A DNA stretch of 64,000 bases from Actinomycetota bacterium (GCA_052389675.1 JBQTHR010000022.1:2891-66890), one strand, 5' to 3'. Shown: positions 5,175-37,134, counted from the first letter of the stretch. The notes: generated by a model not told the origin, from the letters alone. Made by a program: numbers and translations.

Positions 5175-6965
5175 CTACAGAGGCGGGGCGGGAGGTAGTT
5201 GGTTGCTGCCCGGGGGCAAAGTCGCCGTACTGGCTGCAATGTCTGCGGTGATCTCTCGCATCAAGTTGTCCAGTTCGTCGCCCACCAGTTCCTCGCGAGC
5301 CAGCAATTCGTCCCGAATCCGTTCCACTGCCGTCCGGCGGCGCTCCAGGATCTCCCGAACCTCCAGCTTGCAGCGGGCGAGCAACTCGTTGACTTCCTTC
5401 TTGACCCCCTCATCGCTCAACATGATCGAGTTGCGATCGGTGCCAAAGGTCGGGTAGAGGACCTCGAAGGAGAACAGCCTGCGGCCCATACCCCAGCGGC
5501 CGATGTAGTCCAACGCCAAGTTGGTGACGTTGTAAAGATCGCTGGTGGTGCCCGAGGTGGAGGTGTTGAACCACATCTCCTCCGCCACCATCCCGCCCAG
5601 CGAGACCCGGATCCGGTTGAGCACATCGTCTTTGGTTAGGCCGAACCGTTCGTCGCGCTCCACCGAGTAGACCATGCCCAAGGTGGACTCCCGCTTGATG
5701 ATCGTGATGATCTGGATCTGCCAGTCTTTGGACATGAGTTCGTGGTTTACTACCGCGTGGCCCGCCTCGTGGACTGCGGTCATTACCTTCTCGTTCGGGG
5801 TATAGCTGACCTTCTGCTTGAGACCGATGTCATCGATCATCTTCGCTGCCCAGATGTCGTTCCAGGTGAGCGAGTCCCGCCCGTCTTGCAGCGCGACGAT
5901 TAACGCCTCGTTAATGATGTTTTTGATTCGGGCGGGCGAATAGTAAATGGTTGCCTGAGCAAAGCGGTCCAGATCGATCTCCTCGTGCTGAACCTTGTCC
6001 AGGTAGTACTGAATGACGTCTTTGCGGCCGTCCTTGTCGGGCAGGCCGACGTAAATCTTGCGATCGAACCGGCCGGGGCGCAGCAGCGCCGGGTCCAGGT
6101 CCCGCGACCGGTTGGTGGCGCCGATGATCAGCAAATTGTGCTGGGGCACCTTGGGCTTCATGCGCATGAGCCGCCGGATATGGCGCTTCCAGCCGCGGGG
6201 CATGACCAAGCCGTCCATCTGAACCAGCAGCTCATTGATGATGCCCATCCCGCTGCCTCCGCCGCCGCCCATGATGAACCGGTCGACGAAGCGCTGCGGA
6301 TCGCTGGCCGACTTGCGCGCGCCCTCCATGGGCATGCTGCCGCGGGAACCGATCGCGTCGATCTCGTCGATGAAGATCACCGCGCCGTCATAAATGCGGG
6401 CGTACTTTTTGGCCTTGCGGAACAGCATCATCACCCGAAGGTTGCCGATGCCCATAAACATGTTGGCGAAGCCGCTGGCCGGAGTGTAGATGAAGGGCAC
6501 GCCCACCGTGCCCGCCACCGCCTTAGCCATCAGCGTCTTGCCGGTGCCCGGGGGACCCTCGAAGAGCAGACCGTGGGGCGGGTAGCCGCCAATTTTCTTG
6601 AACTCGCGAAAGCCCCGGAACAGCTTGACCACTTCCTGCACGGACTCGACCACCGGCTTTTGGCCGCGCACATCGTCGAAGGTGACGTCGTACTCGTTGG
6701 GAAAGATCGTGTAGGCCCGCCCCCGGGAGAGGAACCAGAAGATGGCGGCAAACTGGACGATCATGAACATCGAGACCGAGATCAGGGTCATCGCCAGCCT
6801 CCCCAGCCGGGAGAGCGCGTCGAACGCGCCGCACTGGGCCGGCATTCCGGTGGTGGGGTCGGCACAGTTTCCGTAAAGCTGGATGGTCCATGAGAAGGCG
6901 GTCCACAATAAAGCGAGAATTATGATGCGCGGCAGCCATAAGCTAAGCCGGTTTTTCAGAACCAT
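5175..6965 (-). CDS. FtsH-family AAA+ ATPase / zinc metalloprotease (atypical, short extracytoplasmic loop)
   Basis: Walker A GPPGTGKTLMAKAVAG, Walker B IFIDEIDAIG, second region of homology, HEAGHAVV zinc-binding HEXXH; two N-terminal TM helices. Confidence 0.8.
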   Translation of the reverse strand: MVLKNRLSLWLPRIIILALLWTAFSWTIQLYGNCADPTTGMPAQCGAFDALSRLGRLAMTLISVSMFMIVQFAAIFWFLSRGRAYTIFPNEYDVTFDDVRGQKPVVESVQEVVKLFRGFREFKKIGGYPPHGLLFEGPPGTGKTLMAKAVAGTVGVPFIYTPASGFANMFMGIGNLRVMMLFRKAKKYARIYDGAVIFIDEIDAIGSRGSMPMEGARKSASDPQRFVDRFIMGGGGGSGMGIINELLVQMDGLVMPRGWKRHIRRLMRMKPKVPQHNLLIIGATNRSRDLDPALLRPGRFDRKIYVGLPDKDGRKDVIQYYLDKVQHEEIDLDRFAQATIYYSPARIKNIINEALIVALQDGRDSLTWNDIWAAKMIDDIGLKQKVSYTPNEKVMTAVHEAGHAVVNHELMSKDWQIQIITIIKRESTLGMVYSVERDERFGLTKDDVLNRIRVSLGGMVAEEMWFNTSTSGTTSDLYNVTNLALDYIGRWGMGRRLFSFEVLYPTFGTDRNSIMLSDEGVKKEVNELLARCKLEVREILERRRTAVERIRDELLAREELVGDELDNLMREITADIAASTATLPPGSNQLPPAPPL

Positions 6966-25803: not shown

Positions 25804-26953
25804 ACAAGGGCCCGGGCCGCAAGCCCAAGGATCAGGAGAAGGAGCGGCTGCAAGAGGTGGCCCGACTGGAGGAGGCCTTCAAGGAGGTCTCGATCGAAAA
25901 CGCACTCCTGCGAAAAAAATCATGCTGGGCTTGATGGGCGCCATCCGGGGAAACCGCCTCGACCCGGAGGTCAAGCTCGAGCTGGTCGGCGCGGTTATGG
26001 AAGCCAAGAGGCAGGGCTTTGCCATCTCCCGCTCCTGCGAGCTGCTCATGCTGTCCCGCAGAAGGCTGCATCGGTGGATCGCTGGCAAGGATCTGGACAA
26101 TCTCACCGCCGAGGACCTGGCGGACGAGCCTCCGGTGCCCAAGACTCATGCCAACAAGATCACTGCAGAGGAACGGGACGCCGTGCTGGACGCCGCCAAG
26201 GATCCGGACAACTCGCATCTGCGCCACCGCAAGCTCACCCACAGGCTGTCTCGGGAGGGCGCATGCTTCGTCAGCCCATCAACGACGCTGAGATTGCTGC
26301 AAGAGGCCAACCTGGTGAGCGACTACCTGAGGCCACCCCGGCTCAAAGGCCAGAAACCGGACAAGGAAGCCACCGAGCCGAACCAGGTTTGGGGGTGGGA
26401 TATCAGCTGGCTGAAGGTCTGCGGGGCCTTCTGGTACCTGATCGCCATAGTGGATATGTATTCGCGCAAGATCGTCGGGCACGCCGTTCGCCCCCAGGCC
26501 ACCTCCGACGACGTCACCGACGTGTTCGATAAGGCGCTGGCCAACGATGGCCTGCTGGCCGTCGACGCCCCGATGCCCAAGTCCTTGTCCGACCGGGGAC
26601 CCCAGATGAAATCTCGCTCGATCCGCAGGTTCTTTGCCGACCTCGGGATCACCCAGCTGTTCGCCCGTCCCCGGACGCCGGCGGACAACGCTGAGATCGA
26701 AAGCTTCTTCGCCACCATCAAGGGAGAGCGGCTGTACCTGGCGGATTACGACGATCCGATCAAGATGATCAACGACGTGGACAGCTTTGTGATGTTCTAC
26801 AACGAGCAACGCCTTCATCAGGGCGTAGGATTCGTCACCCCCGCCGAAAAGCACGATGGCCGCTGGGTGGCCATCACCGCTGCACGGGAAGAAGGGATGA
26901 AGCACGCTCGACAGCGCCGGCTTCAGGTCAACCGAGGGTGCGGAGCGTGATCA
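25803..26953 (+). mobile_element. IS3-family element, 5'-truncated (orfA tail + intact orfB), no left end
   Basis: orfA C-terminus KGPGRKPKDQEKERLQEVARLEEAFKEVSIENALLRKK with A7 slippery site (cgaaaaaaatc) abutting acnA stop; orfB 25922..26950 with HTH and rve DDE core. Confidence 0.8.
25922..26950 (+). CDS. IS3-family transposase OrfB (integrase core)
   Basis: NQVWGWDISWL...IVDMYSRKIVGHAV...DRGPQMKS...ADNAEIESFFATIKGE DDE/rve motifs. Confidence 0.85.
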   Translation: MLGLMGAIRGNRLDPEVKLELVGAVMEAKRQGFAISRSCELLMLSRRRLHRWIAGKDLDNLTAEDLADEPPVPKTHANKITAEERDAVLDAAKDPDNSHLRHRKLTHRLSREGACFVSPSTTLRLLQEANLVSDYLRPPRLKGQKPDKEATEPNQVWGWDISWLKVCGAFWYLIAIVDMYSRKIVGHAVRPQATSDDVTDVFDKALANDGLLAVDAPMPKSLSDRGPQMKSRSIRRFFADLGITQLFARPRTPADNAEIESFFATIKGERLYLADYDDPIKMINDVDSFVMFYNEQRLHQGVGFVTPAEKHDGRWVAITAAREEGMKHARQRRLQVNRGCGA

Positions 26954-27329
26954 GAATGCTGCTTAATTCTCGACAGGACTGGGACAAAGGTGCTGGCGCA
27001 GTCGGCTATCGACGGCTTGTTTCGGAGTTCCTAGGAATGCGCCACCAGGACCGATAAGAACCTACAACGATGCCAGCCCCATGCGGCCTGGACGGAGGAT
27101 GAGGTTTTCTCGGGGCCGAAGTAGCGGCTGACGATCTTGCGAGAGCAGCTGTCGAGCACCGGGATCAGGTGATACAGGCCGGCCCGAGTGGGAATGTCGG
27201 TGATGTCGTAGCGCCAGGTCTGATTGGGCTCGGCGTCGTTGACCTCGGGCCTTGGCTGCCTTGGACCGGCTGCGCCGCTGGTAGCGGGGAACCTTGCCGG
27301 CGGCCCGCAGTACCCGAAGCGTCGAGGAC

Positions 27330-28010
27330 TCCGAACACCAGACCCGATTTTGCCGAGACAGCCGGTGGGTCAGGTTGCGGTGACGCTCATCGGCCAGCCC
27401 CGGCTCGTCGGCGGCCTTAATGATCTCGGCCTTCTCCTTCGCGCTCAGAGCGTGGGGTGCCACCTTGGCCACCGGCGGCCGGTCGCCCAGATCGTGCTGG
27501 CTCAGGTTGTTGACATCCCGTCCCCCGACCCAACGACGAAGGCGTCGGGAGTCGAGCAGGATCACCCGGCACGCCCGATCTATGGTCATACCTTGGTCCT
27601 TGGCGTCAGCCACGGCCCGGACGATCTGGAGCTTGACCTCGGCGACCAGGCGAGCGCCGCGGATGGGCCCGATCAAACCCCATTGACTTTTCCCCGCAGC
27701 AGGGTGTTCTCGATGGCCAGCTCCTTCAGGGCTTCGTTGGAACGCTCGAGCTCTTGTTGGAGCTGGGTAACCTGCTGATCTGACTTCTTGCGGCCGCGGC
27801 CCTTGCGCAGGGCCTCCAGGGATCCATCCTTTACCTTGGCCCGGATCGCCTTGAGCTGCCAGGTGGTGATGCCCCACTTGCGGCACACCTCGGCGTCGGT
27901 AGTGTTCTTGCGCGACGCCTCCAGGAAGATCTGCCACTTCTGATCCGGAGTCAGCCTGGAGCTCCGCTGTCTGCGTTCCTCGTCCATCTCCTCTCCCCTC
28001 CGGGTTCATA
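27330..28010 (-). mobile_element. second, divergent IS3-family fragment (complete orfA, orfB truncated before DDE core)
   Basis: orfA 27673..27987 (LTPDQKWQIF...leucine zipper); slippery gggaaaag; orfB N-terminal HTH about 50% identical to first copy, homology ends about 27364. Confidence 0.75.
27673..27987 (-). CDS. IS3-family transposase OrfA
   Basis: 104 aa, HTH + leucine zipper (QLQQELERSNEALKELAIENTLLRGK). Confidence 0.8.
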   Translation of the reverse strand: MDEERRQRSSRLTPDQKWQIFLEASRKNTTDAEVCRKWGITTWQLKAIRAKVKDGSLEALRKGRGRKKSDQQVTQLQQELERSNEALKELAIENTLLRGKVNGV

Positions 28011-28062
28011 TCACCCGCTCTGGGAAGGCTGCCAGGGTCAGGGTCTAAAAGAGTGGATTTAG

Positions 28063-28611
28063 AACGCCCAAAAGCGGTCGCAAGGTCTGACGCAAGCCGA
28101 TGAGATGGTGGTGCATGACATCCCCGATGAACGGCCCTTGTGTGAGGGAGACATCTTCTCTCTTGATGCCGGCGTCAAACTGAACGGCTGGCATGCCGAC
28201 ACGGCATTGACTCTTGCGGTAGGAGCAATTTCCCAGGAATCGCAACGGCTGATTCAGGCGACCAGGCAGGCGCTGGAGGCGGGTGTTGTGCAGTGCCGGC
28301 CGGGAGCCCGGCTGGGCGACGTTGGCCATGCCATTGAAACTGTGGCTGTGGCGGCAGGCTTCACGGTCATGGATCAGCTGGTGGGCCACGGGATCGGGCG
28401 CTCCCTGTACGAGGACCCCCAAGTACCCAACCGGGGAGAGCCGGGGACCGGACCGGTACTTCAAGAAGGCTGGGTCCTTGCGGTAGAGCCGATGCTGACC
28501 AGCGGCTCCGGCCAGATTCAACTCCTTCCCGACGGCTGGGGAGTCAAGACCGCCGATTGCTGCCCCGCCGCCCACTTCGAACACACCGTGGCGGTGGCCG
28601 GATGCCGTTGA
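28063..28611 (+). pseudogene. map: methionine aminopeptidase type I, 5'-truncated (C-terminal about 180 aa only)
   Basis: HDIPDERPLCEGDIFSLDAG...GHGIGRSLYEDPQVPN...EHTVAV are MetAP metal-binding motifs; N-terminal about 90 aa absent, frame opens right after a TAG next to IS fragment. Confidence 0.7.
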
Positions 28612-28789
28612 TCAGATTACTTCCGAGCCGAGCTTATATCCTGAACATCGCAAGCAGGTCCCGCTTGAATCCCGGCCACACCGGGGGGCTGGCCGGTAAA
28701 CACCCGGCCCTGGGGATCAAAATACTGCCAAGCACTCATCGGGAAGAACCGCGACGGCAAGAAGCTTTTCAACAATGGCAAGACCTCGC

Positions 28790-28915
28790 CGAGCTCCTTC
28801 CCTTAGGCACCTCCAGATCTCCGAGGCCACCTGGAACCGCTGGCGCAGCCAATACGATGGGATGAACGCCGAGGAACTCAAGCGGCTGAAAACGCTCGAT
28901 AGGGAGAATGCTCGA
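28790..28915 (+). mobile_element. third IS3-family OrfA fragment (about 40 codons)
   Basis: LQISEATWNRWRSQYDGMNAEELKRLKTLDRENARL resembles the N-terminal/zipper region of IS3 OrfA; no continuation. Confidence 0.45.
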
Positions 28916-28923
28916 CTACCGTG

Positions 28924-29166
28924 CTACTGGGTGTTTCTGTTCTTATCCGGTCTTCGGACTATGCTCAAACTTGCATACAAGAGGGCTAAAGACAAGATGC
29001 CGGTCCCAACGACGTTCCATGGTGTGGGAAGGCCGACACCGTAGCCGGAGAAAAAGCCTGCTCCGAACATGTAGATCAACGGCCCTCCGATTACCAAGAT
29101 TGCTAACGCGGTTACCACCCTAGCGATCAGCATCCGGCCCCATTCTATTCCCGGCTTCCGACGCAC
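28924..29166 (-). CDS. small 2-TM membrane protein (third gene of low-GC cassette; candidate immunity-like protein)
   Basis: 80 aa, two hydrophobic helices; start overlaps upstream gene by about 22 nt; region GC markedly lower than flanks. Confidence 0.5.
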   Translation of the reverse strand: MRRKPGIEWGRMLIARVVTALAILVIGGPLIYMFGAGFFSGYGVGLPTPWNVVGTGILSLALLYASLSIVRRPDKNRNTQ

Positions 29167-29618
29167 TCAGACCGCCAGAAAATGGGAAGCGACCCATGAT
29201 CAAAGTAACAATTCTTGGTCCAGGAATTGCTGCTGTTGGCTCTGAAGTAAGCGTGTTGTTGATAGTCGATATTCGGGGCGTGATGAAATTCTCCAACTAT
29301 GTCTATTCTTTCGTAACTCGGAGCGCCATGCGTAATGTAGTAGTAGCACTTCGGGTTCGACCACGGAAATACCGAGTGGTAACAGTAACCGTTAGAAAAC
29401 CGCATGTCCTGCACCCGATTCGTTTGCTGAACGTATTGCCCGCGGACGTAGACTTCAGTCGCGGTAACGCCGAACTGCTCCAAAACGGTGTGTTTAACCC
29501 ATCCCCGGTGAAAATGGTAACTTGACGATTGATATGCAGGGGTTGGCAAAACTGAAAACGTAAGAATTGTTGCGGCAAGAATGAGGGTGAATAGGACCCG
29601 GAACGTTCTGAGGCTCAC
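29145..29618 (-). CDS. secreted Cys/Tyr/His-rich protein of unknown function (second gene of low-GC cassette)
   Basis: Signal peptide MSLRTFRVLFTLILAATILTFSVLPTPA; 4 Cys, many Tyr/His; 4-nt overlap with upstream gene. Confidence 0.55.
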   Translation of the reverse strand: MSLRTFRVLFTLILAATILTFSVLPTPAYQSSSYHFHRGWVKHTVLEQFGVTATEVYVRGQYVQQTNRVQDMRFSNGYCYHSVFPWSNPKCYYYITHGAPSYERIDIVGEFHHAPNIDYQQHAYFRANSSNSWTKNCYFDHGSLPIFWRSECVGSRE

Positions 29619-30025
29619 GAGCGACCTCCCTCGAGGGAATTCAACTCGGTTGGAACAACAATTCGGCCACCCGCTGGTGGAGGGTTATCTATACCCCTTG
29701 ATGGTTCAACCTTGTCAACTCTGACTCTGCAGTCTTCCTCGATTACCCAGCCGATCTTAAGATCGGGTGCACTCCCCACGATTTCTGTTCCCACACCAAA
29801 GGGCTCCTCAAAGAAACAAGTATCTCCGTTCTTCCTACCTTGGGTTATCACATCTCCCTTCTTTAGGAAGACCTTCTGATATGGTTTGTTTCTTCCACCC
29901 TGGTGCGCAAAGGGCTTAACTGATTCCGATGCAGGCGACGTCGACCCAACTTCGCTCATGACGAATATTCCCATAACCAAAATCGCTGACAAAAGCGTGA
30001 TCGATAGTCCAGTTCTTCTACGCAT
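29615..30025 (-). CDS. secreted protein of unknown function (first gene of low-GC cassette)
   Basis: Signal peptide MRRRTGLSITLLSAILVMGIFVMS; 2 Cys; about 100-aa mature domain; no homology recognised. Confidence 0.55.
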   Translation of the reverse strand: MRRRTGLSITLLSAILVMGIFVMSEVGSTSPASESVKPFAHQGGRNKPYQKVFLKKGDVITQGRKNGDTCFFEEPFGVGTEIVGSAPDLKIGWVIEEDCRVRVDKVEPSRGIDNPPPAGGRIVVPTELNSLEGGRS

Positions 30026-30084
30026 ATGCCACTCCTCGCCCCGGTATACAGCGGCTGATGCTACTTCTTGCAGATAGGGGAGGG

Positions 30085-30106
30085 ATATAGGTACTTATAC
30101 CTATAT
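30085..30106. promoter_or_regulatory. AT-rich inverted repeat (9-bp arms, 4-bp spacer) in promoter region of low-GC cassette
   Basis: atataggta-ctta-tacctatat, about 60-80 bp upstream of cassette start codon. Confidence 0.5.
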
Positions 30107-30310
30107 GTCTCTGGGTACAATTGGTAGCAGATAAGTGGGGAGTCCGAGTCGGCCGGGTGGGCGTCTCCGAATATCCGGCGGCTTCGAGGTCGGAGCCTGA
30201 GGAGGAGATCTTGGACAAGCCGCGCTTCACGACTCCCCATCGCTCCTGTCGCTCCCTGGCGACCTTTCACCCAGAAGCCCTCACCCAGATCGCAGAAGTA
30301 TGCTGTAAGA

Positions 30311-30760
30311 ATGGGAAAGGTTGCAGTCCAGCGTTCCTTCGACGTCGAGGTGGGACGGGACGAGGCATGGAAGCGGCTGGCGAGAGTTGAGCAGTGGCCA
30401 GAGTGGGCCCCCACATCACCGCCGTGACCCTGTCGCCAAGCGGCTCTCTTGGTCCATCATCTAGCGGAGCTCTCCACATCCGGGTCTTGGTCGCAACACC
30501 TTCCAGATGTCTGGGTGGGAGCCTCCGAAACGGTGGGAGTGGACTGGGGGACTCCCAGGCGTTCGGATCCGGTACGACCACCGCTTCTAGGAGTTGGAAG
30601 ACAAGAATACGAGAATGACATGGGTAGTGACGCTCGACGGACCGCTCGCGTGGTTGATCCGCCCGGTCTTCGCGCGCGTTTACGGTCGCAACTTGGACAA
30701 AGCGATCCCACGGCTTCAGGACTGGATTCGTACTCAACCCGGATGAAAGGGTGTTGCTTC
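30311..30760 (+). pseudogene. SRPBCC (Bet v1/START-like polyketide-cyclase fold) family gene with at least two frameshifts
   Basis: MGKVAVQRSFDVEVGRDEAWKRLARVEQWPEWAP then frame switches at a C5 run to HITAVTLSPSG, later to a third frame (…ARVVDPPGLRARLR); ends uncertain. Confidence 0.35.
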
Positions 30761-30913
30761 ACCGATCCGGCCAGATGGGGAAGCTGGCGATTCAGGGGAA
30801 GTGGCTACCGGATGACCATAGCAACCGGTTCAGGCAGTACAAGACCCTTTTGCGGGGTGGGCGATGGCGGATTTCACCCCCCGCCCGGCTCGAGGGCATT
30901 AACCCCAGGGCGC

Positions 30914-31141
30914 CTAGCGGCCCATCCGCTCCTTGAGGCCCGGGATCCCCTTGAGGGCCGCCAAGACGGCGTCGCTGTCATCAACCTTGGGCTTGGCCGC
31001 GAGGAAGGGAGATTCCTCAGACTCGGGCCCGGCGCCGCCGGTCCTGAAATAGTCTTCGGCGGTCGGAACGGCGGGCCGGCCGGCCACTTTCTCCTTGAGT
31101 CCGGGAATCTGGCTCAATGCCTTATCGATGGATTCGGTCAT
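30914..31141 (-). CDS. small hypothetical protein with IPGLKE(K/R) motif at both ends
   Basis: 75-84 aa; repeated LSQIPGLKEKVAG / LKGIPGLKERMG. Confidence 0.35.
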   Translation of the reverse strand: MTESIDKALSQIPGLKEKVAGRPAVPTAEDYFRTGGAGPESEESPFLAAKPKVDDSDAVLAALKGIPGLKERMGR

Positions 31142-31267
31142 GCTGCACCCCTTTTCTTGAAGTCGCACGTTGGATGTACGAACCGATGACTTACCAGTAT
31201 CCGGCCGTTCGTACCGGAAAGCAAAACTATTACCCTGAAGGCTCCAGCTACCAACCGAAAGGATCGG

Positions 31268-31654
31268 ATGTACCTACGAACACGGAGCGCGTGCGCGCTC
31301 ACCCTCCTGCTGGCCGGCTGCGCCGGGTCTGCCGAGCGGAGCGCGGGAGTGACCAGCGGCCCGGCTACCGGCACTGGCGCAGTCAGGATCGAGATGGGGG
31401 ACAACGTCTTCGACCCGCAGACCCTTCGAGTTAGCGCGGGCGACGAGGTGGTGCTGGAGATTGCCAACGTGGGCGATGCGGCCCACGACTTCACAATCGA
31501 GCAACTGGATCTGGCCAGCGGAGTGGTCGCTCCCGGCCAGGTGGTTACCGCAACCTTCACCGCTCCCGGCGAAACTATCGAGTTCGTATGCACCCTGCAC
31601 CGGGGCATGGACGGTGCAATCGAGGTTAGTGGTGAGCGCGGCGGCCGAAAATGA
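31268..31654 (+). CDS. cupredoxin-domain lipoprotein (plastocyanin/azurin-like)
   Basis: Lipobox LLLAGCAG; His(AHDF)...Cys-Thr-Leu-His...Met ligand set (FVCTLHRGM). Confidence 0.75.
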   Translation: MYLRTRSACALTLLLAGCAGSAERSAGVTSGPATGTGAVRIEMGDNVFDPQTLRVSAGDEVVLEIANVGDAAHDFTIEQLDLASGVVAPGQVVTATFTAPGETIEFVCTLHRGMDGAIEVSGERGGRK

Positions 31655-32525: not shown

Positions 32526-33578
32526 CTAACCGCCGCCCAGAATCTTTACCAGCTCGAAGGCCGGCGGGCGGTCCAGCTGATCGAAGGTACACGAAGCGGG
32601 GTCCCGGTCGGTGCGCCAGCGCCGGAACTGGGCTACGTGGCGGAATCGATCGCCTTCCATGTGGTCGTAACCAACCTCAGCCACCAGTTCAGGACGCAGC
32701 GGCTGCCACGACATGTCCTTGTGGGCATTCCATCGATTCTTCATTCCGCCGGGGATGTGCTCGAACCCGGCGATCTCGGACCAAGGGTGCTCCTCGAAGC
32801 CATCGGTTCGTACCGCAGCCAGGTCGTCCAGCAGCCTCCGGCGCTCCGCCATGGTGAAAGCACCGGCGACGCCCACATGATGCAGGCTGCCGTCTCCCGC
32901 GTACAAGCCCAGCAGCAGCGACCCCACCACCGGCCCGCTCTTGTGCCAGCGAAACCCGGCAACCACGCAGTCGGCGCTGCGCTGATGCTTGATCTTGAAC
33001 ATCAGCCGTTTGTCCGGCGCGTAGCCGATTCGCTTGGGCTTGGCGATCACCCCGTCCAGCCCAGCCCCCTCGAAAAGGGTGAACCACTGCCGGGCAAGGT
33101 CTACATCGTCGGTGGAGGGGGTCACGAAGATCGGGGGGTTGCTGATTGCCAGGGCCCGCTTCAGTTGTTCCCGCCGCTGGGCGAACGGCCGGCCGGTCAG
33201 CAACTCATCGCCCAGCGCCAGCAGGTCGAAGGCGATGAACGACGCCGGCCACCGCTCGGCCAGCATGTTCACCCGAGAGGCTGCCGGGTGGATGCGCTGC
33301 TGGAGCATCTCGAAGTCGAGGCCACCTCCGTGCGCAACGACCACCTCTCCGTCCACAACGCAGCGCTCGGGCAGCTGTCCCAATGCCCCTTCCACAATTT
33401 CCGGGAAGTAGCGGTTTAGCGGGCGTTCGTTGCGGCTGCCCAACTCTACCTCTGCCCTGTCCCGGAACACGATGCACCGGAATCCGTCGAACTTAGGCTC
33501 GTAGATCATCCCTTCGGGGATGTCGGGCACGGACTTGGCCAGCATCGGCTTTATGGGAGGCATGACCGGAAGGTCCAT
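32526..33578 (-). CDS. ligC: ATP-dependent DNA ligase (LigC-type, ligase domain only)
   Basis: Adenylation motif I KFDGFR, about 350 aa, OB-fold C-terminus. Confidence 0.85.
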   Translation of the reverse strand: MDLPVMPPIKPMLAKSVPDIPEGMIYEPKFDGFRCIVFRDRAEVELGSRNERPLNRYFPEIVEGALGQLPERCVVDGEVVVAHGGGLDFEMLQQRIHPAASRVNMLAERWPASFIAFDLLALGDELLTGRPFAQRREQLKRALAISNPPIFVTPSTDDVDLARQWFTLFEGAGLDGVIAKPKRIGYAPDKRLMFKIKHQRSADCVVAGFRWHKSGPVVGSLLLGLYAGDGSLHHVGVAGAFTMAERRRLLDDLAAVRTDGFEEHPWSEIAGFEHIPGGMKNRWNAHKDMSWQPLRPELVAEVGYDHMEGDRFRHVAQFRRWRTDRDPASCTFDQLDRPPAFELVKILGGG

Positions 33579-33789
33579 ACGGTTACTGGGCCCAGGTAGT
33601 CATTTTTCGATCCTACCGCCGGCCCGCCTCTCCCAGGAGAAGTCCGCGCTTGCAGGGGGCCGGCTCAGCAAGTTGGCGAGCCAACTGCGTGCTCACCCGC
33701 CGCCCGTCCGGGCCGATCTGGCCGGCGTAGTAATCGTCGATTCCTGGATTCGCTTCGCACAACTGCGTTTGACACTCTCGGTCGCGCAC

Positions 33790-34818
33790 CTACTTGCCTC
33801 TCAGACCCTTGGGCCCATCGGCAGGTCGGGCCTTGCTCGGTTGGACCCGCTTCGGCTCGCCGGGCATCTTGGGGAAGTTGGGCGGCCAGGGGGCATCGCC
33901 CAAACCTTGCCGCTCGTCGTCCAGGGACAGTTCCAGCAGCGACTCCAATGACCCGGCGGTCTCATCGATGGGCCCGTGCGGGTCACCCCGCTCGGCGAAC
34001 CGGTCCGGGACGGTGAGGATCGTCCAATCGCCAGGCTCGACCGAAAGCACCTCATCCCACTCCAGCGGCGTGGAAACCCGCCCACCCGGCACCGGCCGGG
34101 GCGAGTAGGCCGACGCTACCGTCCGGTCCCGGGCGTTTTGGTTGTAGTCAAGGAACACGCCGTGGCGAGTCTCCTTCCACCAAGCGGTGGTCGCCCGGGG
34201 GTCTCGCCGCTCCACCTCCCGGGCAAGCGACAGCGCCGCCCGGCGCACCTCCGTGAACCCCCAGCGGGCCTCGATCCGCACATTGATGTGGATACCCCGG
34301 GAGCCCGAGGTCTTGGGGAAGCCGGCCAACCCGTGCTCATCGAGCACTTCTTTTACGCTCATCGCCACCTCCCGGACCTGTTCGAATGAGATGCCGGGCG
34401 TCGGGTCTATGTCCACCCGCAATTCGTCCGGCCGATCCAGGTCGGTGCGGCGAACAGGCCACGGGTTGAGGTCGATGCACCCGAGGTTGATCGCCCACAC
34501 CATGTGCGCCCGGTCGACGATGGTTAAGAACTCCGCCGAGCGCCCGCTCGGGAAACGCACCATTGCGGTTTGGATCCAGTCCGGACGGGGCGTTGGGACG
34601 CGCTTTTGGAAGAAAAACTCGCCCCCGGCACCGTCGGGGAAGCGCTTGAGCGAGGTGGGCCGGTCGAAGACGCCTCTGATCGCCCCAGGCGCCACTGACA
34701 GGTAGTACTGGACAAGGTCCAGCTTGGTCACCCCGATTTCCGGAAAGAACACCTTCCCTGGGTTAGTGACCTTGACCTCGTGCCCGTCCAGCTCTATGAG
34801 CTCGAACTTCGCGGTCAT
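33790..34818 (-). CDS. NHEJ primase-polymerase (LigD polymerase domain, stand-alone)
   Basis: FELIELDGHEVKVTNPGKVFFPE...LDLNPW...SGSRGIHI typical LigD PolDom/PrimPol motifs; start at internal Met of longer ORF. Confidence 0.8.
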   Translation of the reverse strand: MTAKFELIELDGHEVKVTNPGKVFFPEIGVTKLDLVQYYLSVAPGAIRGVFDRPTSLKRFPDGAGGEFFFQKRVPTPRPDWIQTAMVRFPSGRSAEFLTIVDRAHMVWAINLGCIDLNPWPVRRTDLDRPDELRVDIDPTPGISFEQVREVAMSVKEVLDEHGLAGFPKTSGSRGIHINVRIEARWGFTEVRRAALSLAREVERRDPRATTAWWKETRHGVFLDYNQNARDRTVASAYSPRPVPGGRVSTPLEWDEVLSVEPGDWTILTVPDRFAERGDPHGPIDETAGSLESLLELSLDDERQGLGDAPWPPNFPKMPGEPKRVQPSKARPADGPKGLRGK

Positions 34819-35058
34819 GGCTGGAGAAGGCGGCCGTTGACCGGGAATGAGCGGACTGCAATCCTGGCCACTACAACCCGGCCAGACCGGCCAGACCGCA
34901 GCCCGGCGGGGACGCTGCACCCAACACAGCCTGAGGAGGAGGCGATGGGCTCCCGGCGAGGCGGGTGGCCTCCACAAGAGCAGCCACCTCCCGATCGCCT
35001 CGGCCGAAGCGATCATCCCGCCCGAGTCCAGTCACCGGGTCCACTCAGGCAGCGCCAC

Positions 35059-37134
35059 TTAGAGCGGGTCTCCCAGGGCATGCAACTGTGCTTCGGGGGC
35101 CGAGACCCCGCGGATCCGGGCCTCTTGCAGACCGAGCGCCTGGAGCCGCTCGGTGCTGATCGGCCGTCGCTGGCCGTCGGAGATGACCCAAAGCTCGCTT
35201 CCGGTGCGCAAGATGGTGCCTTCGGCGAAGCCCACGGCGGCGCCGGCGGGGAAGCGGGCGAGGGCGGCGTCGGAGACCTTGACCACGTCGTTCCATCTGA
35301 AGCGGGACTCCAGCACTGCAGGTGAGGTGATCGGCCGGCGAACTGCTGCCTCAATCAGGTAGACAGTCGGGCCGCTACCCTTGACCAGGGTTCCGTTGAA
35401 GGGCGCCTCCTTGGGATCTGCGATCGCAAACCCTTCTTCGAAGATCTCGATCTCCTCCTGGCGCACGCTCACCACTTTCTTGAACGAGTAGCCGGACTTG
35501 GTGAGCGCATGAGCCGAGGTGAAGCCCCGCCGCTTGCCTTCGGAGATCAGCCATACCGGTGTACCGGGCCGGGAGAGCAAAGTGCCGTCCCGGTATCCGA
35601 CCGGGTGCCCCAATTCGTAGCTGGTGATCTGCTCCGAGCCGATCACCGTTGCCACCGCACCTGGAAAGTGCGACGACAAAGCACCCGGGCTTGCGAAAGG
35701 CCGCTTCTTGCCGCCGGCCAACAGGTAGATGGCCGGGTCCGGCCCTTTGACCAGGGTCCCGTTGGGCAACTTGGGCGTCTCCGGGTGAGCCGCCGGGGCT
35801 GCCGCGACAACCTCAGGCGGGACCGGGACCGGGACCGGGACGGCGAGCGGCGCCTTCGGCTCGCCCTGCCAGAACAAGGTGCTCAGCAGGCCCAGTTGTC
35901 TTTTGAGCGCCGAACCTGAAACTCGCTTGGTCCCGCCTGAGCCGGTGATCCTCACGCCTCCTTGCGTGTCCGACAAGACGCTGCGCACTCTTCCAGAGAC
36001 TCCTTCGGGGCCGAGGATCTCGATTGTGGCAGGCATCCCGGCGTTGGTCGCCGGCGATGATTCCAGCCGGTCAGCCAGTTCCTGTTGGGTGAGCCGGACA
36101 CTCCACGAGCGCCGGGGGCCGGTGTCCCATGGGTCGGGCACGCCCCGCAGGTAGGGCAGGGGAGGTCCTCCCCAGACGAACTCGTTGTTCTCGGTATGGC
36201 CGCCACTGGAGGAGTGGTACACCGCCTCGATCGGCCGCCCGTTCAGTGTCAGGATCCTGCCGTCGGTGGCGTCGACTGCGGCGCGCCAGCGGTCCCCCGC
36301 CTCGCCACCCTCCTTCTCGAAACCCACGTAGACCTGATCGATAGTCGACGGGAACATCCCGCAGTTGCACGGCGTGCGGGCCTGCCCCAGCCGGGTAAGC
36401 TTCTCCAGTGCATAGGTCCGGCCAGCGATCGCTTGCGCTTTGAGAGCCTCTTCCGGCCACAATGAGGGCACCTCGCCCAAGCCGTAGAGGTAGTGCTGCA
36501 TTCCCATCCCGGTGACCGTGGCCCGGATGAGCCAGGTTTCGCCCTTTTTGTAGGTGTCTATTTGTAAGGTCCCATGTTTGTAGCGGTTGCCGGTTTGTGG
36601 CAGGCGTAGGAGGCTGCCGTGCGGCCCGTAAACTACGAACAGCGCGGCGGTAGCGCCCGGTCGGCTTACCCGTTCGCCGGCGCTGCTCAGCAGCAAAGAG
36701 CCCGAGGCGTCAGTGGAAACGTTCCATTGCTTGTCGGCGGAGCCCGTGGCGACTATCTCGCCCTCCGGGCTGCCGTAGCGCACCTCGAACTTGCCCGAGG
36801 CGCTCAGATCTATCGATGGCATGTCCCACAGCAGCCCTACTCGCACCTGAGCTGGCATCTTCCCCGTCTCGAGGGTGGTCCCTTGGTAATAGTGGGTGAG
36901 GATCTCGGCTGAGGTGCGCCCGGCGTCCGCCTGGCCCTTGGCCCCCCACTGGCTAAGGCCTAGCCCGTGTCCCCAGCCGCCGCCGGAGAACACGAAGGCG
37001 GGAGTGGGCCCCTGAGCTTTCGCAGCCATGCCGGTTGAAGGCAAGGAGGCGGCTAGGAGCAGCACCCCCACTAACGCCGCGGGTCGGCGGTGCCCTGTCC
37101 TGTGGTTTCTGTTAATGGGAGTCAAGAACAGCAT
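35059..37134 (-). CDS. SpoIID/LytB-domain secreted protein with four C-terminal about 35-aa repeats
   Basis: SpoIID signature GGGWGHGLGLSQWGA; repeated (N/D)GTL(V/L)..G...(Y/W)LI....RR.I modules. Confidence 0.75.
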   Translation of the reverse strand: MLFLTPINRNHRTGHRRPAALVGVLLLAASLPSTGMAAKAQGPTPAFVFSGGGWGHGLGLSQWGAKGQADAGRTSAEILTHYYQGTTLETGKMPAQVRVGLLWDMPSIDLSASGKFEVRYGSPEGEIVATGSADKQWNVSTDASGSLLLSSAGERVSRPGATAALFVVYGPHGSLLRLPQTGNRYKHGTLQIDTYKKGETWLIRATVTGMGMQHYLYGLGEVPSLWPEEALKAQAIAGRTYALEKLTRLGQARTPCNCGMFPSTIDQVYVGFEKEGGEAGDRWRAAVDATDGRILTLNGRPIEAVYHSSSGGHTENNEFVWGGPPLPYLRGVPDPWDTGPRRSWSVRLTQQELADRLESSPATNAGMPATIEILGPEGVSGRVRSVLSDTQGGVRITGSGGTKRVSGSALKRQLGLLSTLFWQGEPKAPLAVPVPVPVPPEVVAAAPAAHPETPKLPNGTLVKGPDPAIYLLAGGKKRPFASPGALSSHFPGAVATVIGSEQITSYELGHPVGYRDGTLLSRPGTPVWLISEGKRRGFTSAHALTKSGYSFKKVVSVRQEEIEIFEEGFAIADPKEAPFNGTLVKGSGPTVYLIEAAVRRPITSPAVLESRFRWNDVVKVSDAALARFPAGAAVGFAEGTILRTGSELWVISDGQRRPISTERLQALGLQEARIRGVSAPEAQLHALGDPL

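Follow-up and report, generated by a model that had tools for sequence, protein, structure and literature searches.

A low-GC cassette encoding two predicted exported proteins and a small membrane protein, associated with mobile elements in Actinomycetota

Three overlapping genes and their translation signals

The window analysed here is a 64,000 nucleotide (nt) stretch of DNA from an Actinomycetota bacterium (GCA_052389675.1 JBQTHR010000022.1:2891-66890). It carries a compact cassette of three overlapping minus-strand genes, which we refer to as A, B and C and which encode two proteins predicted to be exported and a small membrane protein. An initial annotation, made from the sequence of the window, had proposed three minus-strand open reading frames (ORFs) at this position, and all three were recovered with identical coordinates and lengths. 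Protein lengths are given in amino acids (aa) and transmembrane segments are abbreviated TM.

29615-30025, minus strand: gene A, 136 aa, ATG start, ORF for an exported protein (predicted)
29145-29618, minus strand: gene B, 157 aa, GTG start, predicted exported protein rich in Tyr, His and Cys
28924-29166, minus strand: gene C, 80 aa, GTG start, predicted two-TM membrane protein
30032-30037, minus strand: Shine-Dalgarno-like GAGGAG, 6 nt 5' of the A start codon, as read from the sequence
29625-29630, minus strand: Shine-Dalgarno-like GGGAGG within the 3' end of A, 6 nt 5' of the B GTG
30085-30093 and 30098-30106, no strand assigned: inverted repeat with perfect 9-nt arms (TACCTATAT / ATATAGGTA) and a 4-nt spacer, approximately 60 nt upstream of A

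The A stop codon and the B start codon overlap by 4 nt (GTGA), and B shares 22 nt with C when C is read from its GTG; both overlaps had been described in the initial annotation. An alternative ATG start for C at 29133 would give a protein of 69 aa. The GTGA stop/start overlap, together with the GGGAGG site close to the B GTG, suggests that A and B are translationally coupled. NCBI MGQ0679140.1, encoded on a 134-kb contig of a metagenome-assembled genome (MAG) of an Actinomycetota bacterium, has the same sequence as protein A, and one Logan assembly holds an identical 2.7-kb contig (L001).

The AT-rich palindrome that had been pointed out upstream of A is present, with perfect arms, but it is not conserved among six relatives and therefore provides no evidence of an operator; a role as an operator or promoter element is possible. 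A promoter and terminator scan near A gave background levels, with no sigma-70-like promoter or terminator scored, and Rfam and tRNA scans of the cassette region returned no matches. An ORF of 70 aa (30018-30230, minus strand) lies upstream of A and spans the palindrome. Gene calling on the identical Logan contig includes it (L001:505-717), and it has no homologue or family match; it is probably not a gene.

Conservation of A, B and their membrane partners

Homologues of B were scarce. Six were found at 42-86% identity among 5.8 billion proteins, and a profile search of 1.84 billion cluster representatives retrieved a family of 112 clusters, 75 of them at E <= 1e-10. The B family is rare. Below, L-numbers denote related loci or contigs and P-numbers the B-family proteins that were collected. 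The order A, B, membrane gene recurs in approximately 15 independent metagenomic loci (L002, L003/L008 from an Acidimicrobiales MAG, L004, L005 with a truncated A, L006, L007, L009, L010, L011, L012, L014, L015 and L020). Scans with short patterns, which reach close relatives only, found one MAG (Acidimicrobiales) among GTDB genomes and five loci in metagenomes.

Compared with their relatives, the three genes had proportions of nonsynonymous differences (pN) of 0.14-0.47 and proportions of synonymous differences (pS) of 0.65-0.92, with synonymous sites saturated (pN 0.26-0.47 and pS 0.67-0.81 for A; pN 0.31-0.39 and pS 0.65-0.79 for C). DNA similarity with the closest loci, L002 and L004, was limited to coding sequence, at approximately 70%. 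Because pS is saturated, pN is low and DNA similarity is confined to coding sequence, we conclude that the three genes are real, are subject to purifying selection and are old rather than recently copied. The region is littered with insertion sequence (IS) fragments and pseudogenes, and the initial annotation had itself raised the concern that the ORFs could be spurious; we regard the chance that they are accidental frames in AT-richer IS debris as negligible. That explanation is ruled out by homologues at 42-86% identity, by some 15 syntenic loci, by pN far below pS, by the Shine-Dalgarno sites and by the confident fold of B described below. Two related loci carry interrupted genes, each of which represents either a decaying copy or an assembly frameshift: in L005 (302-679) the A gene ends after 56 codons, and in L009 (2732-3264) the B gene is broken between the signal peptide and the domain.

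Protein A has an N-terminal hydrophobic, signal-like segment (residues 5-23 by hydropathy), followed by a domain of approximately 60 aa (GDVITQG...C70...C99RVRV) and a Pro-rich tail (PPAGG). Positions G57, C70 and C99 are invariant in the family alignments (A2 and A6). Protein B also begins with a hydrophobic segment (residues 1-19 by hydropathy), which forms a signal helix at residues 3-21 in its AlphaFold2 model, and cleavage probably occurs after Ala28 (PTPA28). These N-terminal segments, and the AxA-type sites present in relatives, identify A and B as predicted exported proteins. The earlier description of two signal-peptide proteins and a two-TM protein is in line with the hydropathy profiles and with the modelled signal helix of B.

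Mature B is 10% Tyr, 7% His and 3% Cys, and the Cys/Tyr/His-rich character and the motifs CYH, CYYY and NCYF that had been reported for it are all present. Four positions (E47, W86, P145 and W148) are invariant in an alignment of 37 sequences, and T52, C79, S82, C91, Y119, C137, G142 and C152 are also conserved. AlphaFold2 modelling of B with 99 sequences gave a predicted local distance difference test score (pLDDT) of 94.5 and a predicted template modelling score (pTM) of 0.79, superseding a poor first run with 7 sequences (pLDDT 62). The model consists of eight long consecutive beta strands, with the signal helix as the sole helix. C79 and C91 lie on adjacent hairpin strands, as do C137 and C152, and we infer two hairpin-stapling disulfides (C79-C91 and C137-C152) from the model. 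The beta1-2, beta3-4 and beta7-8 turns carry the conserved motifs EQFGVTATE, CYHSxFP(G)W and GSLPxxW, respectively. Since these turns share one pole in an up-and-down meander, the model points to a single conserved Glu/Trp/Tyr-rich site at one pole of B.

Searches for known relatives of these proteins were empty. None of A, B and C matched a family in Pfam, NCBIfam, PADLOC or PHROGs. No Pfam or NCBIfam toxin or bacteriocin model scored above threshold (noise only, e.g., Peptidase_C42 at E 0.059 and TIGR03949 at E 0.78), and a Pfam scan of 37 members of alignment A5 revealed no recurrent weak family. Sequence searches of the PDB with single proteins and with profiles returned noise only (deoxyhypusine synthase, MRT4, RecA and GroES), and Foldseek searches with the B model returned nothing at E < 0.1 from the PDB or BFVD. 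By these searches the A, B and C families are undescribed in every library covered, as the initial annotation had anticipated. The nearest folds to B are those of Zea (Lmo2686, PDB 4K15) from Listeria monocytogenes and BAS0735 (PDB 3C5P) from Bacillus anthracis, at 5-8% identity, Foldseek E > 0.1 and template modelling scores of 0.42-0.56, and the B-family profile finds neither protein among PDB sequences. Zea is a secreted, ring-shaped hexamer with reported RNA binding, and according to its authors its structure is common to no protein of known function (PMC6907008). In the description given in its paper, Zea has no equivalent of the four Cys of B, of A or of the membrane gene; the function of BAS0735 is not known. 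As the nearest fold is shared with no protein of known function, the fold of B gives no functional assignment.

In many relatives A and B are halves of one protein, a relationship that the initial annotation had missed. A hidden Markov model of the A domain matches the N-terminal half of 28 of the 115 collected B-family proteins (29 at a looser E<=1), and further family members of 245-300 aa are A-like by eye. The fused proteins have the order signal peptide, A, Pro-rich linker, B. In those seen, a classical AxA site for signal peptidase is present and there is no further hydrophobic segment within the chain, so that they would be released rather than tethered. Fused and split forms are interspersed in a neighbour-joining tree of B domains, which indicates repeated fusion or fission. 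Since A and B form a single polypeptide in many relatives, we consider them parts of one functional unit. B also occurs in other combinations. P0043 (599 aa) has an RCC1 beta-propeller followed by a B domain, and P0094 (348 aa) has B followed by six Trp-rich repeats of approximately 48 aa without a Pfam match. At L006 (1151-1417, plus strand), a signal-peptide protein rich in His, Trp, Tyr and Gly (...GYWEWYTSGEYHGGWHFWGYIYDD...) is encoded directly after A-B-C and has no family match.

Protein C has TM segments at residues 13-31 and 52-70 by hydropathy, consistent with a two-helix hairpin, and both of its ends are basic. Conservation is highest in the loop that joins the helices (GAGFFSxYGxGLPTPWN), which is predicted to face outward by the positive-inside rule. 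The window C is 44-59% identical to its counterparts in L002, L004 and L006 (alignment A3). A small multi-pass membrane gene adjoins A/B in approximately 13-14 of 16 loci, and its products fall into three types without detectable homology to each other (hhalign probability < 3%).

Type i, 68-82 aa, two TM segments: window, L002, L004, L006, L009
Type ii, 111-129 aa: L005, L008, L010
Type iii, 104-118 aa: L011, L012, L014, L015, L020

Types i and ii are found in sister B clades. Type iii spans distant clades and diverges at a rate like that of B (28-40% identity for C and 31-40% for B). The third gene is thus replaced by non-homologous membrane proteins in other clades, which the initial annotation had also missed.

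Foreign composition and mobile elements

The cassette coincides with an island of low GC content next to IS remnants.

28900-30150, no strand: low-GC island containing the cassette, GC 0.48-0.53 across 28950-30150
28775-28920, plus strand: IS3-type OrfA (HTH_Tnp_1) fragment adjoining the 3' end of C (ORF 28775-29044; PF01527, E 1.3e-5, residues 11-48)
28105-28611, plus strand: 5'-truncated map gene (PF00557, profile positions 61-206 of 208), with the first ~60 codons missing

The bin 29001-30000 has a GC content of 0.508, the lowest among all 64 one-kb bins of the window (mean approximately 0.64). The drop in GC content that had been reported for the cassette is therefore clear, but the flanks of the island are at 0.60-0.65 rather than the 0.68 given for them. 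GC content at third codon positions (GC3) is 0.48, 0.58 and 0.65 in A, B and C, respectively, below the 0.72-0.85 of long host ORFs, so that codon usage bears out the difference. Because the deficit extends to third codon positions, amino acid composition alone does not explain it.

The IS3-type OrfA fragment probably marks the downstream boundary of the island. It and the truncated map gene had both been named in the initial annotation and were identified again by Pfam; the frameshifted SRPBCC gene proposed upstream of the cassette went unconfirmed, with no Pfam match for any ORF in 30121-30746. In a check for a composite transposon, the IS3 OrfA fragment was present at the 3' end and a Pfam scan of the ORFs on the 5' side picked up no IS sequence. 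The IS debris just downstream of the cassette (25922-28611) includes an rve/HTH_32 transposase ORF (25922-26950, plus strand) and an IS3-like region (27062-28009, minus strand) with an HTH_Tnp_1 ORF (27673-27987). The wider neighbourhood is chromosomal, with an Lhr helicase, aconitase, an rve-type IS, a cupredoxin and a LigD ligase/primase pair. Upstream, 30130-31200 contains no convincing gene and no Pfam match. It is followed by a gene for a cupredoxin-like protein of 128 aa with a signal or lipoprotein-like N-terminus (31268-31654, plus strand; PF13473 and PF00127), which is 1.2 kb from the cassette, outside the low-GC island and absent from the related loci. Beyond it are adjacent genes for an ATP-dependent DNA ligase and a LigD primase-polymerase (32526-35016, minus strand), a non-homologous end-joining pair, and a gene for a SpoIID-domain protein (35059-37134).

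In most loci where sufficient surrounding sequence is available, the cassette is flanked by mobile-element genes. These genes and other neighbours are listed by locus.

Window: IS3 and rve elements, by Pfam
L002: ISL3 and HTH_32
L004: weak match to a tyrosine recombinase/integrase
L010: relaxase-like ORF of 1083 aa, recognised by eye from the sequence with no Pfam scan
L013: IS256-like insertion within B, by eye
L014: neighbouring HTH_17 gene
L016-L019: A-B gene split by IS66, recurring on several contigs from a single metagenome, with a serine recombinase next to it
L020: rve and Mu-type transposases

The cassette has a GC3 0.15-0.3 lower than its flanks in high-GC hosts (the window, L008, L009, L002 and partly L011), and contigs with a GC content of 0.49-0.57 carry it without a dip. 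A deficit in high-GC hosts and its absence from the contigs of lower GC fit repeated transfer of the cassette from lower-GC donors. These observations support a horizontally mobile cassette that travels with mobile-element genes, and the foreign composition and horizontal acquisition proposed in the initial annotation hold for several hosts as well as for the window.

Several related loci have further features. The IS66-split A-B copy occurs in differing surroundings on three or more contigs of its assembly, and a second, highly divergent A-B-like paralogue (L016:5604-6392, minus strand) lies beside the split gene (L016:8001-10480). In L012, upstream of position 5416, there is a very large protein with YD/RHS repeats and an extended C-terminus, recognised as RHS by eye, which ends approximately 2 kb before an A-B fusion gene that is accompanied by a type iii membrane gene. 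In the Acidimicrobiales MAG, a regulator of 928-967 aa with AAA ATPase, TPR and LuxR/GerE domains is encoded directly upstream of A (L003:137-2923 and L008:2423-5326); the window has no LuxR-type regulator of this kind.

A candidate two-part effector and the alternatives

The cassette is best filed as a mobile exported effector with a membrane partner, unusual in that the effector has two parts which can be split or fused. It resembles a toxin with membrane immunity in its export, swapped membrane partner, mobility, rarity, occasional targeting-type fusions to propeller-like domains, and nearby RHS-type (L012) and LuxR-type (L003/L008) genes. On these grounds we favour, tentatively, a toxin-immunity reading in which A and B make up a horizontally mobile, exported two-part effector and the membrane gene encodes an immunity or partner protein. 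In a stronger form, which we put forward with greater reserve, A-B-C would represent an undescribed class of signal-peptide-exported two-part (split or fused) toxins whose beta fold is new and whose membrane immunity proteins can be exchanged for one another, and IS and integrative elements would have carried it between uncultured Actinomycetota and bacteria of lower GC content.

Under the toxin-immunity reading, translation of A and B would be coupled and both proteins would be exported; oxidation outside the cell would give A one disulfide and B its two hairpin-stapling disulfides, and the two proteins would associate as the equivalent of the single-chain A-B proteins. The B loops (E47, W86, P145 and W148, with Y80, S82 and Y119) would make up a site for binding or catalysis directed at a target in the envelope or membrane of competing bacteria. 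C would reside in the producer membrane with its conserved loop facing outward, protecting the producer. A bacteriocin-like toxin with its immunity protein would also aid persistence of the mobile element.

Pore-forming colicins have a small multi-pass (3-4 TM) membrane immunity protein encoded beside the toxin gene, an arrangement typical of membrane-acting bacteriocins. The cassette is like bacteriocin operons in that one or more genes for exported proteins are followed by a small membrane gene, and in its mobile DNA, patchy distribution and swapping of the membrane gene between clades. It differs from them in that export would use an ordinary N-terminal signal peptide, that the effector is in two parts, and that the conserved part is B, with no variable killing domain; colicin, class II/III bacteriocin and immunity families have no homology to A, B or C. 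Some secreted proteins have an N-terminal pro-domain or partner able to act as a separate chain, such as the pro-regions of proteases. A is comparable in always preceding B, either joined to it by a Pro-rich linker or, if split, as a separate exported protein that would be co-translated with it, but it has no match to a known pro-domain family.

Three known kinds of effector were considered and rejected. A polymorphic toxin of the RHS/CDI type is excluded by the conservation of the C-terminal B domain across the family and by the lack of an RHS, filamentous or other delivery domain in A/B. A beta-pore-forming toxin of the aerolysin or leukocidin type was set aside because the Foldseek searches of the PDB and BFVD gave no fold match to the known members of this group. 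A histidine-brace copper protein, like a lytic polysaccharide monooxygenase, is excluded because the His residues are off the mature N-terminus, which would be Tyr or His, 5-6 residues before His-x-His, and because the motif is missing in many members and internal in fused forms.

Several points weigh against the toxin-immunity reading. No sequence or fold similarity to a known toxin, bacteriocin or immunity family was found in the libraries searched, and the cassette family was not found among PLSDB plasmids, phage genomes or IMG/VR contigs. No orphan immunity genes or toxin-variable regions turned up, although no search aimed at them was made. The membrane gene of L010 lies on the strand opposite to A/B, and in L016 the IS-disrupted A-B copy is not followed by a membrane gene. 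The placement of the conserved site at one pole of B was deduced from strand order alone. Of the three proteins B is conserved best, and type iii C co-diverges with it steadily, a pattern to be expected of a stable functional complex no less than of a toxin-immunity pair. This last point also suits a non-toxic envelope module, in which A-B would be an exported protein that binds a ligand (e.g., a glycan or cell-wall component) or remodels the wall while docking on C as an anchor or receptor, with a role in adhesion, envelope maintenance or sensing. Type iii C and B diverge at the same rate across distant clades, the invariant Glu, the two invariant Trp and the conserved Tyr and Ser of B are a typical sugar-binding make-up, type i C is most conserved in its putative outward-facing loop, B is fused to propeller-type repeat domains, and Zea, which has the nearest fold, is a secreted non-toxic protein. 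However, such rarity and patchiness, location on mobile elements and foreign composition in most hosts would be unusual for envelope housekeeping, the membrane partner is swapped for non-homologous proteins in sister clades, and the Pfam scans matched no carbohydrate-binding or hydrolase family. We judge an envelope module to be the main alternative, somewhat less probable than the toxin-immunity reading.

A function in the self-interest of the mobile element other than a toxin, such as surface exclusion or defence against competing elements or phages, appears improbable. It would account for the consistent position of the cassette beside IS, integrase or relaxase genes, for its multiple copies in one metagenome and for the predicted location of all three products in the envelope. 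Most known exclusion proteins, however, are lipoproteins or reside in the inner membrane and are not freely secreted with disulfide bonds, and the cassette has no match in PADLOC or PHROGs and no occurrence on the phage, viral and plasmid records searched. Binding of copper or another metal by B, through His-x-His and other His and Tyr residues, is more improbable still. The closest seven sequences all retain His35-x-His37 and His122, and there is a cupredoxin ORF at 31268-31654, but His-x-His has been lost in many members (e.g., P0043 and P0052) and is not among the family-wide conserved positions, and the cupredoxin gene stands apart from the island and from all related loci, as noted above.

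The cassette is a clean case of unameliorated IS-associated cargo inside a high-GC genome. Uncharacterised cassettes are common in metagenomes, and it is the concrete, testable handles of this one that set it above the average: whatever its function, the link through A-B fusion, the confident B model and the conserved Glu/Trp pole make it a well-defined target for study. If the toxin-immunity reading is true, A-B-C would add a new family of antibacterial proteins, from uncultured Actinomycetota and with a fold tied to no known activity, and its split and fused A-B forms, together with three unrelated membrane partners, would constitute a natural experiment.

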